Below are positions 14,100 to 64,000 of a stretch of 64,000 nt of DNA, piece by piece. Origin of the DNA: Escherichia phage EK010. The position numbers and the translations under genes were made by a program. Each line of letters opens with the position of its first letter. The first letter of the stretch is position 1. The notes under the pieces are model-generated. The model saw nothing but the letters and a program-made list of their open reading frames with translations, was not told the DNA's origin and made no database searches. The DNA lies in sequence record NC_070981.1, one strand, 5' to 3'.

Positions 14100-14629
14100 G
14101 TCTTTTAGGTTCTCAAGAATTACACAGCGTTATTGATAGTGGCTTTTTAGATGCGGAGCATAAATATGTTAACGCTGCTAGTGTGGATATCCGTATTGGT
14201 GATACTATCCTTGTTGAAGAACAGGCTGATGGTATTGTTGACATTGATGCTAAAGAAAACCTCAAGTGGAAAGAAGTGAAAATCCCTGAAGATGGCATTG
14301 TCATTACTCCGGGACAGTTCTTCTTAGCTCACTCTATGGAAGAATTTAACCTTCCAGATAACATCTCAAGCCTGTTTGTACTCCGCTCCTCGATGGCTCG
14401 TTGTGGTTTGAACCACCTACATGCTGGTTGGGCTGATGCAGGGTTTAACAGCAGTAAGCTAACCTTTGAGTTCCATAACGTTACCCACAATCACAGCTTA
14501 CGAGTTCGTGCTGGGATGCGTGTTGGTCAAATGGTTATGTTTGAACACTCTCACGCTGGTGATGATTCCTATGCAGTGAAGGGTCGTTACAATGGCAGCA
14601 ATGGTGTAGTTGCTTCTAAAGGTGTATAA
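14096..14629 (+). CDS. dcd: dCTP deaminase
   Basis: 'VDIRIG', 'LRSSMARCGL', 'GWADAGFNSSKLTFEFHN' align with bacterial Dcd motifs. Confidence 0.7.
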   Translation: MSLLGSQELHSVIDSGFLDAEHKYVNAASVDIRIGDTILVEEQADGIVDIDAKENLKWKEVKIPEDGIVITPGQFFLAHSMEEFNLPDNISSLFVLRSSMARCGLNHLHAGWADAGFNSSKLTFEFHNVTHNHSLRVRAGMRVGQMVMFEHSHAGDDSYAVKGRYNGSNGVVASKGV

Positions 14630-60260: not shown

Positions 60261-60299
60261 CTACTAAAGGGAGGACAAAGCCTCCCCTATTTTTAGTAG
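60261..60299 (-). promoter_or_regulatory. imperfect long hairpin between terL and portal
   Basis: GGGAGG/CCTCCC inner stem flanked by CTACTAAA/TTTAGTAG outer stem; overlaps terL stop. Confidence 0.3.
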
Positions 60300-61834
60300 G
60301 TCTGATTCCATCTGTTAATATTGTCTTGATAAAGCGATGAACTACCATAACTAGCATCATGCTTACTACGTCCACGATGTGTTACAGAACAAGCTGAATA
60401 TCGCATAGCATCCATCAAGTCATCATGTTCCTTAACAATCTTGCCAACCTTACGGTGATAGCGAGCTTTCTCTTCAAAGAGTTTAGCACACGAAGCAATG
60501 TTAAAGATTTTAAAACGACCTGACATCATACGTTCACGAATATCAGTAATTCCCGGCTCTACAAAGAAGTTCTTCTTACCATCCATTCCAATCTTATTGT
60601 AGAAGGTCTCACTCTGTACATTAACTCCTGCATTCTTATAGAATTGAGCAACAGACGAACCACTTCCCTTCTCAATGTTGTCGGCATCATGAGGAAGAAT
60701 AACTGGAATCCACTGACCACGACCATTAATAGCTGGTGCATGATACACTGGAGTAAACCCACCTTCTTTATAGCAGTCATAAACATAAATCGTATCAGTG
60801 TTAGCATCATATGCTGTCCAAACAGCGGCTGTCGGGTGATCGATACCAATATCAATAGCACACACACGTTTCCACGTATCAGGTATCTCAAAGGGATCAC
60901 ACTTAATCATGTCATCTGATACATCATAAATTAAACCAGAACCAAGCAACGGCATACCTTTTGAACGCATCTCTAACTGCCATGCTGGAATACCTTCAGT
61001 CATATCTTTAATATCTTGGTCAGTGATGTGTCCACCTAAATCTACATGAGCATCCCACCAAGAAGCGTTCTGGAAATATAGAGAACCTGTGTTCTCGTCC
61101 CCTTCACCTTTCATAAACTTATCCACCAGCTCTGTTAAACCATTCTCTGGTGTAGCTGTAATAGTAACTAAACCTTTAGTTGTAAGCGTACGTGTTACAC
61201 ACTGAGAGAAGATTGCCATAGATTCATATGGATCTTCTTCGTCCAGCCAAATGTAATCAACCGTAGCACCCATCAATGTATGTTCACCCTGTTGGGTAGA
61301 ACGGAACTCCAGTGTACTTAGACCGTCAAACTCGCCTCTCGCGTTTTGATGTTTAATCTGTACAATCTGTAATTTGTTCCCATCTCGTTCTATTGTATCA
61401 ATGACAATAGCATCACGAGGAATAACACCTGTTCCTATTAGATTCATATCCTTTCCGATAGGTGTTCCAAACAATTCCTTTTGCAATACCTTTCTTGTAG
61501 AGTCCCCTGTAATCCCTACTGCCCAAGCCAATATGGGTCGATTAAATCTATATCCTGTCCACCAAGTTGGGTAGCGACCTGTGACATGACAAGCAAACTC
61601 GTATGCCTCGCTGTATGATTTACCAACACGGTTAGCTGCGCACAGGAATCGGAAGCGATGCTTCAACCCTGCTGCATAGAATTTCTTCTGAAAGTCGTAA
61701 GCTTTAAAAGCTAACATCTTATTATATTTTCTCCACTGGTCCCTTTCTTTTAACATATTGAGCAAAGCTTTCTTTTCCTCTACACTCAATTTATCTCCAG
61801 TTAGAGCTTCGTAAATCTCTTTATCTAATGACAT
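60293..61834 (-). CDS. terminase large subunit
   Basis: Walker A-like 'ANRVGKS', Walker B-like 'IWLDEE'; start at ATG 61834 with GGAGG RBS (track start is TTG 61846). Confidence 0.7.
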   Translation of the reverse strand: MSLDKEIYEALTGDKLSVEEKKALLNMLKERDQWRKYNKMLAFKAYDFQKKFYAAGLKHRFRFLCAANRVGKSYSEAYEFACHVTGRYPTWWTGYRFNRPILAWAVGITGDSTRKVLQKELFGTPIGKDMNLIGTGVIPRDAIVIDTIERDGNKLQIVQIKHQNARGEFDGLSTLEFRSTQQGEHTLMGATVDYIWLDEEDPYESMAIFSQCVTRTLTTKGLVTITATPENGLTELVDKFMKGEGDENTGSLYFQNASWWDAHVDLGGHITDQDIKDMTEGIPAWQLEMRSKGMPLLGSGLIYDVSDDMIKCDPFEIPDTWKRVCAIDIGIDHPTAAVWTAYDANTDTIYVYDCYKEGGFTPVYHAPAINGRGQWIPVILPHDADNIEKGSGSSVAQFYKNAGVNVQSETFYNKIGMDGKKNFFVEPGITDIRERMMSGRFKIFNIASCAKLFEEKARYHRKVGKIVKEHDDLMDAMRYSACSVTHRGRSKHDASYGSSSLYQDNINRWNQTY

Positions 61835-61852
61835 ATATTCCTCCAATAAAAT

Positions 61853-61900: not shown

Positions 61901-62368
61901 TTAACTCTCGTCCGCTTCCTCCTCCTTTTCAGCGTCCTCAGAGTCCTCTGGAGGTAGCACATCCACTTTCAGTGCACCAGTCAAGAAGTCTCGAATCTGT
62001 GCGTTCAGTGATTCTTCATTGATTACATTCTCTTCCTCAATCTTAACCTCAACAGAAGCTGCCTTAGGATATACCAGATCAGCGACTTTACTTGCAGCCT
62101 TGAATCTAAGATCAGGTGGAATATTTGGATCTTCATAAATCTGAATCAACACTTCATCAGGAGACAAATGACTAGCAGCAACACGATCGAGCATGAGCTG
62201 TGTCAATTTACCTCTACTACCTTTGGGACGTCCAAATTTATTACCTTTAGTGAACTTCCCTGTGCTTGGTTCCATGCCCTTGGATTCAAGTTCTTCCGTT
62301 ACTCCGGGCAGTCTTCCTGTAATCTCAGCTACCTGTGCAGGTGTGAGTTCTCCTTTTTCTCCAAACAT
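61901..62368 (-). CDS. putative terminase small subunit
   Basis: 155 aa, directly upstream of terL; basic 'GRPKGSRG' segment and acidic C-terminus. Confidence 0.4.
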   Translation of the reverse strand: MFGEKGELTPAQVAEITGRLPGVTEELESKGMEPSTGKFTKGNKFGRPKGSRGKLTQLMLDRVAASHLSPDEVLIQIYEDPNIPPDLRFKAASKVADLVYPKAASVEVKIEEENVINEESLNAQIRDFLTGALKVDVLPPEDSEDAEKEEEADES

Positions 62369-62395
62369 CTTATACTCCTTCTACATTATCGTTAT

Positions 62396-62422
62396 AACAA
62401 AAAGCCTCCCACGAGAGGAGGC
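62396..62422 (-). terminator. rho-independent terminator upstream of terS
   Basis: minus-strand GCCUCC-(7 nt)-GGAGGC followed by UUUUU. Confidence 0.5.
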
Positions 62423-62433
62423 AACACCTTTTA

Positions 62434-63096
62434 TTAGTCTACATCACCTACGTGTAGGTTGAACAAAGTCTGGAGAGCTACAGTTTCACCTTCCCAGCTA
62501 ACTGGAACAGATTTGTCATTCTCTACATCAAAAGAAGAGGACGCCAAAAATTTTTTGTATTCTTCAAGCTCGGGGTCCAGAGCTTGTTCACTAACATGCA
62601 CCCACGTAACTACTTCATTACCTTCTTCGTCAATTACTACATTACGTGACCATTGCTCTTTTGAATTTAAATAATTATTCAGAGCCTCATACTCGGCTTC
62701 TTCAATCATCTCAATCATCTCACGGGCATAGCCCGGTAGGTGTGCGTGTTTGTCAGCTACATACGGAACAACTTCTAAATTGGATGGACACTTACGTTTA
62801 ACTTCCTTTGCTACAGTGAAATAATCTTTCACATCTTTAGCTTCTGTACGAGGAATCAAACCTTCCCATAATTCACGGGTTGAAGGAGCATGGCCATACA
62901 CAGAACCATGAGCCAGTTGTTTTGCCGTCTCAACTCGGGACTGACCTCCAGTAGTTTCATGAACACGATTCAGATAGAGAACGTCCTCTGATAAAGGACG
63001 GAGAGGACCACCATTGAAAACAACCTCGCCTTTACATCCCATGTTCTCATAGATTGCATTCAGTGTATTAGTTCCTGTCATATTGTTATTCATCAT
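62434..63096 (-). CDS. hypothetical protein (220 aa)
   Basis: ATG ORF with AAGGAG RBS; followed by hairpin + U-run. Confidence 0.5.
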   Translation of the reverse strand: MMNNNMTGTNTLNAIYENMGCKGEVVFNGGPLRPLSEDVLYLNRVHETTGGQSRVETAKQLAHGSVYGHAPSTRELWEGLIPRTEAKDVKDYFTVAKEVKRKCPSNLEVVPYVADKHAHLPGYAREMIEMIEEAEYEALNNYLNSKEQWSRNVVIDEEGNEVVTWVHVSEQALDPELEEYKKFLASSSFDVENDKSVPVSWEGETVALQTLFNLHVGDVD

Positions 63097-63352
63097 TCTC
63101 TCCTTCAGTATTTACGTTATCACCATAACGATAATCTTTAAACGTTTCAGCCTTGTAACTTACAAAGCATCTCATGTACAACCAGCCCAATGAACTCAGA
63201 TCTATTGTCACATCAAAATCTTCATCGTCGTCTAGGTCTACCAATCTACCCAAACAAGTTATTACTTCAAAGTCCCCATCTTCTTCAACTTTGAATGCAC
63301 ATGTCTCAGTGCGGAAGAAAGGAATCAACTCTGATAAAAAATCTAGAATCAT
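63086..63352 (-). CDS. acidic hypothetical protein, first gene of late operon
   Basis: Internal ATG 63352 with AGGAGA RBS; longer track ORF would run into the iteron array. Confidence 0.45.
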   Translation of the reverse strand: MILDFLSELIPFFRTETCAFKVEEDGDFEVITCLGRLVDLDDDEDFDVTIDLSSLGWLYMRCFVSYKAETFKDYRYGDNVNTEGENDE

Positions 63353-63367
63353 TTTATATCTCCTCTG

Positions 63368-63494
63368 ATAAAGGGGGTGATCAACCCATAAAGGCGTACT
63401 CATCTAAAGGCCCACCCGTGTACTAACCCATGTACGCTGATGTAAAGGGGATCTCATAAAGGCCACCTCATGTTAAGGCTTACCCATTAAGGCC
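63368..63494. repeat. array of seven degenerate direct repeats, consensus about ATAAAGGCC
   Basis: Copies at 63368, 63388, 63404, 63442, 63456, 63472, 63486 with 14-20 bp spacing (one 38-bp gap); non-coding, upstream of late operon. Confidence 0.5.
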
Positions 63495-64000
63495 TATCCA
63501 CCCATTTACTATTCCTAACCTTACCACAGTCTGCGCATCTCCATGTACTCTTGTAATAAGCGTGTAACCGTTCATCACCTCTTGATATCCGGATTGGATA
63601 GTACTCGTGATTACATTTGAATTGCTTAATTAGTAACTTAATCTTCCACATAAAATAGTTCCTTATTCTTATATATAAGAGTTTAAAATTTCAATTTGAC
63701 CGAGTGGACCTAGCCTCTCCGAGCGCGTTTCCTAAAAAGGGGGAGTCCTCATTTAAAAAAGGGTTATTACCAATGCAATTGCCTTTAGGAAATCAACCAG
63801 CCTTTAAGCCCTAAGCCCTAGCTCCCTTGCTACCAGTGGCATACCTGCCCATAAATACCCTACCCATTGATATTAGACATGCATTATTTACCCATGTATA
63901 TCTAACCAGTATTCTCCCACCCGTATTTCTCTTACTCATGTTAAGGAAGGATGAAAGGCTAGAGACCTTCTACACTAAGATTGGAATGGATGGTAAGAAG

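Follow-up and report, generated by a model that had tools for sequence, protein, structure and literature searches.

The left end of the Escherichia phage EK010 genome carries a row of short direct repeats whose place and orientation are retained in every Kuravirus and Suseptimavirus left end examined. We analysed one 64,000-nucleotide stretch of this phage (NC_070981.1), here called the window, to which all position numbers refer unless another genome is named; the left-to-right direction of the phage corresponds to its minus strand. In the window the array comprises seven CCTTWA cores on the minus strand between 63366 and 63501, as delimited by motif scan, simulation and conservation. It is a real, conserved cis-element of a familiar kind, short repeats beside a phage terminal repeat, with a unit and an arrangement of its own. 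It most probably binds a protein; we tentatively read it as a row of binding sites, acting at the level of DNA, that may help to recognise or process the concatemer junction for packaging; we hold this function to be possible rather than probable.

A non-random array of bipartite units

Read on the plus strand, the cores match TWAAGGS at 63369-75, 63389-95, 63405-11, 63443-49, 63457-63, 63473-79 and 63487-93, with successive starts separated by 20, 16, 38, 14, 16 and 14 bp. Over the whole window this motif is present at chance level (29 matches versus 29.7 in shuffled sequences), and 7 of its 18 plus-strand matches are packed into 125 bp. The largest same-strand cluster per 130 bp contained seven matches, compared with one to three in 300 first-order Markov simulations. 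No second cluster of at least three matches per 150 bp was found elsewhere in the window or in the approximately 14 kb of genome outside it, for which E20-1, a phage 99% identical, supplied the sequence. The array is a non-random feature that occurs once in the genome. A preliminary description of this DNA had reported seven direct repeats in a regular, multi-copy array, which these counts bear out. The spacing of 14–20 bp that it gave holds for five of the six intervals; the remaining one is the 38-bp gap, which contains two half-units lacking the core. These half-units, recognised by reading the sequence (GTACATGGGTTAG and GTACACGGGTGGG, minus strand, 63412–63442), have the form GTACAYGGGT and keep the CCCRT/AYGGGT part of the unit without CCTTWA. 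Between 63366 and 63960 (595 bp), ACCCRT occurs eight times versus 0.34 expected.

To define the unit, we aligned 82 distinct units on their cores, the sources being 14 Kuravirus/Suseptimavirus left ends plus four relatives from metagenomes. The minus-strand form of the unit, ATGR-N4-S-CCTTWA, is bipartite and about 15 bp long, with ATGR at −9 to −6 and S at −1 relative to the core; in the window, ATGR or GTGG lies 9 nt upstream of each core. Across the 82 units the ATG block is registered to its own downstream core, and it carries about 1.3 bits per position though it was not used for finding the units. The consensus proposed earlier, CAT-N-TAAAGGCC, had fused the core of a unit with the CAT of the adjacent one and is superseded by this bipartite form. 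In 55 of 82 intervals, cores follow each other at 14 bp (21 cases) or 16 bp (34 cases), which means that the 15-bp units abut head to tail. The ATGR and SCCTTWA blocks are about 10 bp apart from centre to centre and thus lie on the same face of the helix. Variable positions within the unit are transversions (S, W), without wobble-compatible changes. Such a bipartite, tiled geometry would fit a DNA-binding protein.

The array belongs to the left end of a phiEco32-like genome

A megablast search with positions 62000–64000 returned 94 phage records, all of them Escherichia or Shigella phages of the Kuravirus/Suseptimavirus group (Gordonclarkvirinae), with phage E20-1 as the closest relative (99% identity). 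The source phage is a phiEco32-like (Kuravirus) E. coli podophage. The large open reading frames (ORFs) of the terminase and structural region lie on the minus strand, so that upstream here means higher coordinates. In relatives whose records begin at the physical left end, the match reaches record position 1, annotated as "direct terminal repeat", which places the array at the left end of a phiEco32-like genome, reverse-complemented in the window. Similarity to every relative ends at about 63960, and the last 40 bp (63961–64000) are unique DNA of the right end; the source record therefore stems from an assembly that is collapsed or circularly permuted. Next to the junction, this right-end DNA does not match that of E20-1, although the two phages are otherwise 99% identical.

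The direct terminal repeat (DTR) is present in single copy in this assembly and covers 249 bp (63712–63960). Its extent was taken from the alignment to phage NC-B, in which a 250-bp repeat region is annotated at the left end, and its boundary sequences are shared with phiEco32, Paul and YF01. Terminal repeats of 193 bp have been reported for phiEco32, SU10 and YF01 (PMC4281155, PMC9965538). The array lies 218–346 bp from the inner DTR boundary and 466–594 bp from the outer one.

Cores are conserved and spacers drift

Five to nine cores were found, in the same place and orientation, in every Kuravirus or Suseptimavirus left end examined. In an alignment of seven genomes, the cores were invariant where present in all seven and the spacers varied; invariant columns made up 20 of 36 core positions versus 24 of 82 spacer positions (Fisher p = 0.008). 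For comparison, 33 of 127 third-codon positions (26%) and 5 of 16 four-fold degenerate sites were invariant in the two flanking genes. These results indicate that the array spacers drift at a neutral-like rate and that the cores are constrained at the nucleotide level. The preliminary description had called for a comparison with related phages and had named a lack of conservation as the finding that would speak against its array; the comparison found the cores conserved.

The survey was extended with metagenomic sequences gathered through homologues of a 155-residue protein, a probable small terminase encoded downstream of the array (see below). A strict three-unit pattern searched in IMG/VR matched solely in Kuravirus-like contigs. 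In seven metagenomic lineages, the interval from the DTR box to the small-terminase gene contained 6–9 forward and 0–2 reverse units, and the 2.7–4 kb past that gene just 0–3. The placement of the units differed by lineage: in L029 they lie in a 5' leader, in L028 and L032 directly ahead of the small-terminase gene, and in L025, L030 and L031 within an ORF. In the latter three (L025 2640–2760, L030 2340–2460 and L031 3075–3175), the CCTTTA cores fall in the N-terminal extension of an ORF belonging to the family of p220, a 220-residue protein of the left end, and are spread over more than one frame. The codons around the cores differ mainly non-synonymously between L025 and L030, and the cores are retained.

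Small genes are inserted between units in several genomes. A 46-residue acidic ORF in phiEco32 (412–697) splits the array into 4 + 2 units, a short hydrophobic ORF is inserted in the arrays of 4E8, ECBP2 and KBNP1711, and in one IMG/VR contig additional ORFs add about 560 bp to the array. In the arrays of phiEco32 and L017, a unit followed by TCAGAGG precedes the inserted gene. Since the inserted genes differ across lineages, the array locus is an insertion hot spot.

Small-terminase homologues without a CCTTWA array (45–67% identity) are encoded by GAP52, 7-11, Privateer, LAh_6 and the metagenomic lineages L026 and L027. The latter two, with small terminases 62–67% identical, keep the repeat box of the DTR and a palindrome found near it, and have no units. 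GAP52, 7-11 and Privateer, which are Grimontviridae relatives, have ATGAC-N3-SCATC repeats, often followed by TCAGTG, upstream of the small-terminase homologue; such repeats were located at 1490–1580 in GAP52, 1510–1650 in 7-11, 2140–2460 in Privateer and 300–400 in LAh_6. The distant relatives with these repeats also possess a Kuravirus-like repeat box, GACCCACTTCCCCTTTT. The Grimontviridae repeats are of like form to the array units (ATGAS-N3-4-CC.T) and could be diverged versions of the same element. The records of these four phages probably start away from the physical end.

The units co-occur with the p220 family in seven of seven metagenomic lineages and are absent from two lineages without a clear p220. 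This co-occurrence is confounded by phylogeny, as just one or two of the transitions behind it are independent. A remote p220 homologue may be present in L027, which has no units.

Related motifs in the terminal repeat and its flanks

Motifs related to the array extend into the DTR. Near its inner end lie two C-run/T-run boxes, CCCCTTTTTA and CCCTTTTTTA (minus strand, 63733–63763), which form the best-conserved part of the DTR in all relatives and are retained in the distant ones. Such boxes have been described for SU10 (PMC4281155), and the 130–170 region of the repeat is highly conserved in YF01 (PMC9965538). A motif scan detected two inverted cores, GCCTTTA, inside the DTR at 63781-87 and 63800-06 (plus strand); one or two are present in eight of ten relatives (one in ECBP2), and none in that part of 4E8 and E20-1. 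The outer DTR (63848–63960, minus strand) contains AYGGGT-type units, with plus-strand ACCCRT at 63862, 63890 and 63919, and the terminus itself opens with the unit-like sequence AGCCTTTC-ATCC-TTCCTTAA-CATGAG (AGCCTTTC..TTCCTTAACATGAG). Four AYGGGTRRG units were also found in the non-coding DNA of the right end of E20-1 (14336–14424 of E20-1 63000–77938), about 330–410 bp before the right repeat and oriented as in the DTR and the array. A CCTTWA array was found at the right end of neither E20-1 nor phiEco32; the window has just 40 bp of right-end DNA.

Both DTR boundaries (63711/63712 and 63960/63961) split the sequence CTAG mid-way. On the minus strand, with a slash marking the cut, they read ..CT/AGCCTTTC on the left and ..GGCT/AGGTCC on the right, and CTAG-centred cuts are seen in phiEco32 (GCT/AGCC and GGCT/AGGC), Paul, YF01 and NC-B as well. 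This pattern suggests that one nicking specificity may serve both ends of the DTR.

The plus-strand sequence CCATGTATATC (63893–63903), in the outer part of the repeat, resembles the gp36 promoter motif tAATGTATAtA, a likeness that may be due to chance. Its direction is outward through the left terminus, so that within a concatemer the early region of the right end would lie in its path.

Genes and signals around the array

The array occupies the entire 134-bp gap between the stop codon of one small gene and the ribosome-binding site of the next. The first of these (63487–63651, minus strand), recognised as a conserved ORF, encodes a 54-residue basic, zinc-ribbon-like protein with an isoelectric point (pI) of 9.8 and the pattern CxH...CxxC (C13, H15, C39, C42). 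It was kept in 14 of 14 Kuravirus/Suseptimavirus loci tested, with the four C/H/C/C residues invariant, and its proline and stop codons (CCT TAA) make up the array's first core. In the seven unit-bearing metagenomic lineages, the 6–7 kb read at each yielded no zinc-ribbon gene. In the phiEco32 reference record, phi32_1 to phi32_3, which lie in other frames, overlap this gene and the array and are probably spurious. The array has a G+C content of 48%, versus 35% for the stretch formed by the zinc-ribbon gene and its promoter.

A sigma-70-like promoter, TTGAAA-18 nt-AAGAAT, was predicted at 63665–63694 (minus strand). The equivalent element in SU10 is listed in Table S2 of its description as a potential sigma-70 promoter upstream of CDS1 (PMC4281155), and we presume that the element in the window is the start of a left-end mini-operon. 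It is overlapped by the perfect 12-bp palindrome CTTATATATAAG (63668–63679), about 35–45 bp inside the repeat boundary. The promoter-like element is retained in metagenomic relatives. The palindrome or a close variant is present in nine of nine metagenomic relatives examined (exact in six), including the array-less L026 and L027, and it could equally be a protein-binding site. L028 and L029 have two AT-rich palindrome-type elements in tandem.

The ORF directly downstream of the array (63086–63352, minus strand; ribosome-binding site GAGGAG at 63365-63360) encodes a very acidic protein of 88 residues (pI 4.05) with a DLDDDEDFD run, for which a role as a DNA mimic or in anti-defence would be speculation. 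In E20-1 (737–1000) this gene contains an in-frame stop codon, so that it is either dispensable or affected by an error in the record. It is followed by the gene for p220 (62434–63096, minus strand; pI 4.8), whose family of homologues is the one that co-occurs with the CCTTWA units. Many public records, and PHROGs too, label p220 as an "ABC transporter"; the protein lacks a P-loop and any match in Pfam, and the label looks unfounded. Together with the probably spurious ORFs over the array, this makes several of the public annotations at the locus misleading. The p220 family is a small orphan, with 19 cluster representatives among 1.8 billion, and neither an informative homologue nor a fold was found for p220 (structure model with a predicted local distance difference test score, pLDDT, of 39). 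The protein is modular, with a conserved N-terminus of 23 residues, a variable middle and a conserved acidic C-terminal domain.

Below p220 we predicted an intrinsic terminator (62422-62404, minus strand) and found an exact match to the gp36-type late promoter motif, TAATGTAGA (62388-62380, minus strand), homologous to the late promoter gttgataatgtagaaggagtataaaatg of SU10 (PMC4281155). The terminator and TAATGTAGA (62380–62422) are the true start of the late operon. The 155-residue protein used to collect the metagenomic series is encoded next (61901–62368, minus strand), adjoining the large-terminase gene. It has a basic N-terminal half with GNKFGRPKGSRGK and a weak match to DUF5681 (E = 0.09), and is a probable small terminase by gene position and this weak motif; its structure model (pLDDT 65) had no match in the PDB. 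The large terminase subunit (60293–61846, minus strand) matches Terminase_6N (E = 5e-15) and Terminase_6C (E = 9e-15).

The array thus lies about 1 kb before the small- and large-terminase genes, and about 1 kb and one terminator separate it from the first late promoter. The genes of the left-end mini-operon have been classed as early in SU10 (PMC4281155). The preliminary description had placed the array immediately upstream of the first late gene. The 88-residue gene below it belongs to the early mini-operon and, with a terminator and about 1 kb between the array and TAATGTAGA, the late operon does not directly follow the array. The 450 bp described as non-coding on its other side contain the zinc-ribbon gene, the promoter-like palindrome and the 249-bp DTR. 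As for the earlier suggestion of a multi-site binding array, a genuine multi-copy array by the genome terminus is present; the functions then offered (packaging site, replication origin, operators of the late promoter) are candidates, of which late-promoter operators are the least likely because of the distance and the intervening terminator. The array is not mentioned in the papers on SU10, YF01 and Privateer (PMC4281155, PMC9965538); an earlier description in the original phiEco32 papers (PMC2587145, PMC3275717) is possible.

DNA or RNA as the level of recognition

The sense transcript of the array folded worse than 196 of 200 shuffled sequences (z = +1.8), and the antisense transcript gave z = +0.1. 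The array RNA showed no covariation, with an unfavourable consensus-fold term of +1.25 kcal/mol, and a search of Rfam gave no match at E up to 1. A structured RNA or riboswitch-like leader was rejected on these results. Mini-ORFs within the array were discarded because of a frame-shifting 1-nt indel in phage Bas87 and because the peptides are not conserved; in the metagenomic relatives with units inside ORFs, the cores persist in different frames. Motif parts also occur in the DTR and, in E20-1, at the right end; both places lie ahead of the left-end promoter-like element and would not be transcribed from it. Together with the helical-turn spacing of the two blocks, we take this as favouring recognition of duplex DNA, with an unstructured RNA platform as the less likely possibility.

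Other candidates were tried and dropped. A partition cassette, with the "ABC transporter" as a ParA-like protein and the array as centromere, was rejected since p220 lacks a P-loop and a Pfam match and the 88-residue protein is strongly acidic. The zinc-ribbon protein as an obligatory partner of the array is weakened by the failure to find its gene in the 6–7 kb read at each of the seven metagenomic lineages with units. A mimic of the 16S 3' end, GATCACCCCCTTTA, is unconserved in the phiEco32 group, and this likeness, as well as similarities of the array to boxA and to the epsilon enhancer, was noted by eye and judged coincidental or untestable.

Discussion

The closest parallel to the array that we found is in T7. 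Reading the T7 ends directly, we counted three CCTAAAG within the terminal repetition, 12 or more at 12–13 bp spacing directly inside the left repeat, and several at the right end. We take these arrays to be SRL and SRR, which flank the 160-bp terminal repetition (Dunn & Studier 1983). T7 and the Kuraviruses are both podophages of E. coli whose genomes carry short direct terminal repeats and are packaged from concatemers, and both have from 7 to at least 12 short units in the same orientation, spaced by 12–16 bp, inside the left repeat. In T7, copies of the motif occur in the repeat and at the right end; in the Kuraviruses, related motifs occur in the repeat and, in E20-1, AYGGGTRRG units at the right end, which may be an SRR-like counterpart. 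The T7 sequence CCTAAA and the Kuravirus CCTTTA/CCTTAA both fit CCTWWA in the same left-to-right orientation, a degenerate resemblance over 6 nt. There are also clear differences. The T7 array abuts the repeat and lies upstream of the annotated rightward promoters, whereas the array of this phage is 218 bp inside, comes after a promoter-like element plus a small gene, and is transcribed. The T7 unit is a single heptamer, in contrast to the bipartite ATGR-N4-SCCTTWA, and the repeat-internal cores are direct in T7 but inverted here. Given unrelated gene content and no evident synteny, the likeness is one of analogy, with homology not demonstrated.

Other systems offer partial parallels. The small terminase gpNu1 binds R1–R3 of lambda cosB, the pac site of P1 consists of seven hexamer repeats, and SPP1 has pacL and pacR. 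Like the Kuravirus array, these are short multi-copy sites near the cut and the terminase genes, on the packaging side. In those systems, however, binding by the small terminase is proven and the sites are about 50–170 bp from the cut, whereas the array of this phage is 218–594 bp from two cuts and its relatives cope without it. Iterons of plasmids and lambdoid phages are usually 17–22 bp long and spaced in helical phase. The array shares with them direct repeats in one orientation beside an AT-rich segment and a candidate partner gene, but its 14/16-bp tiling is out of phase, no initiator homologue is present and dispersal of the units is tolerated. Omega of pSM19035 and ParR on parC (R1, pSK41) are small repressors that act on tiled short repeats. 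There too the repeats are contiguous, head to tail, near a promoter and beside a gene for a small basic protein, which could coat them cooperatively; at the Kuravirus locus, in contrast, there is neither a ribbon-helix-helix or ParR homologue nor a partition ATPase.

In the packaging role that we tentatively propose, one sequence-specific protein would bind the abutting bipartite sites, with ATGR and SCCTTWA one helical turn apart. The array would be the inner left part of a larger repeat set of common orientation, extending over the DTR and both its flanks like the SRL, terminal repetition and SRR of T7. A phage protein, most likely the putative small terminase, alone or with a partner, would coat the sites in replicating concatemers and so mark the left side of the concatemer junction. 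The resulting complex would position the large terminase for the cuts at the two CT/AG boundaries of the DTR, and would aid the start of rightward packaging from the left end. We infer protein binding to the array, the identity of the binder and packaging from the left end first. The array adjoins the genome terminus, which makes a role in packaging or end processing reasonable. In SU10 it is the right end that harbours the early genes with their promoters (PMC4281155). By analogy with T7, this end would be the first to enter the cell, and packaging would begin from the left end. On that view, a site for terminase assembly is to be expected just inside the left end, as with cosB in lambda. Phages of the phiEco32 type are held to replicate in the T7 fashion via concatemers (PMC4281155, PMC9965538).

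Several points weigh against this proposal. L026, L027 and the Grimontviridae relatives keep the repeat box and a small-terminase homologue without a CCTTWA array, and the palindrome is kept too; terminase-bearing relatives without the array place it outside the conserved core of the packaging apparatus, and the boxes inside the DTR are better candidates for a universal recognition site. Inserted genes split the units into sub-clusters hundreds of base pairs apart, which fits poorly with a complex of fixed geometry. The small terminase is a putative reader, itself assigned by gene position and a weak motif, and the N-terminal extension of that protein, ELTPAQVAEITG, was dropped as the reading element since L028 and L029 have units without it. 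The array is transcribed, always in sense orientation, so that an RNA-level or transcription-coupled role is possible. For the SRL and SRR arrays of T7 we know of no established function, and no usable literature on their function was found.

The position of the array within a transcription unit invites two other explanations. A protein coating the array could serve as an operator-bound or polar roadblock that limits transcription from the left-end promoter into the 88-residue, p220, terminase and late genes; the candidates would be the zinc-ribbon protein, another early phage protein or a host protein. We consider this doubtful. The array does follow a conserved promoter-like element and takes up an intergenic gap within the operon, and every lineage has units between promoter and small-terminase gene along the direction of transcription. 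The zinc-ribbon protein is basic, conserved in all Kuravirus/Suseptimavirus loci and has its stop codon within the first unit, and tiled repeats bound by small repressors have the plasmid precedents named above. Yet its gene was not found in the 6–7 kb read at each of the seven unit-bearing metagenomic lineages, and where the units sit with respect to promoters and genes varies (5' leader, intergenic, within ORFs or after the p220 gene). In this phage, moreover, an intrinsic terminator already parts the operon from the late genes, and a roadblock leaves the related motifs of the DTR and the right end unexplained. These motifs, with the helical-turn spacing of the blocks and the inverted cores, point to duplex DNA and disfavour an RNA-level element, in which unstructured CCUUWA/AUGR in the left-end mRNA would bind a protein or the ribosome and tune the translation, processing or stability of the short genes flanked. 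What speaks for it is that the units are always sense-oriented in a transcribed region, that they flank each small gene cassette, the last unit being regularly followed by TCAGAGG and a start codon, and that the sense RNA is unusually unstructured (z = +1.8), as expected of a single-stranded binding platform. We nevertheless judge it unlikely, as the array belongs to no known RNA family and lacks covariation, its variable positions are transversions rather than wobble-compatible changes, and the analogous array of T7 lies upstream of all annotated rightward promoters.

An iteron-type origin of replication, with p220 conceivably as initiator and unwinding in the AT-rich stretch at about 63650–63700, would account for direct repeats that are unique in the genome and adjoin a very AT-rich segment; the stretch with the zinc-ribbon gene and promoter has 35% G+C, the array 48%, and an AT-rich stretch lies about 150 bp away. 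Initiator genes commonly adjoin iterons, and units and p220 family co-occur in all seven lineages. We regard such an origin as very unlikely. At a spacing of 14/16 bp, neighbouring sites face opposite sides of the helix, so that the helical phase of about 11 or 22 bp is missed, and splitting of the units by inserted genes is tolerated. p220 is acidic and of no recognisable fold or family, its co-occurrence with the units is confounded by phylogeny, and L027, which has no units, may encode a remote homologue. Neither Pfam nor PHROGs gave a replication-initiator match for the four genes below the array, and concatemer replication of the T7 type needs no iteron-binding initiator. The same low standing is given to the idea that the units have no dedicated function and are junction leftovers of cassette insertion or recombination at a variable locus. 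The different small genes found between units in phiEco32, in 4E8, ECBP2 and KBNP1711 and in the IMG/VR contig, and a copy number ranging from 5 to 9, are what such relics might leave. Junk repeats would, however, be expected to decay or vanish, whereas here the cores are invariant between spacers that change at a neutral-like rate, 6–9 forward units per left end are kept across lineages with 72–84% identical small terminases, and motif orientation is strictly maintained.

Finally, the array and the clade-specific p220 might together form a new left-end module, in which a novel protein complex on six to nine bipartite sites gives the clade its own junction specificity. We think this improbable; if true, it would provide specificity for packaging or for duplication of the DTR, and the same logic would explain SRL and SRR of T7.

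Kuraviruses are therapeutic and model coliphages (phiEco32, SU10, the BASEL collection). The array is the most conspicuous conserved non-coding element of the left end and, together with the CT/AG cuts and the repeat-internal motifs, offers concrete cis-elements to mutate. The locus tolerates the insertion of small genes and may serve phage engineering. If the array is a functional counterpart of T7 SRL, the Kuraviruses would provide a second, easily engineered system in which a forty-year-old question about T7 becomes testable.

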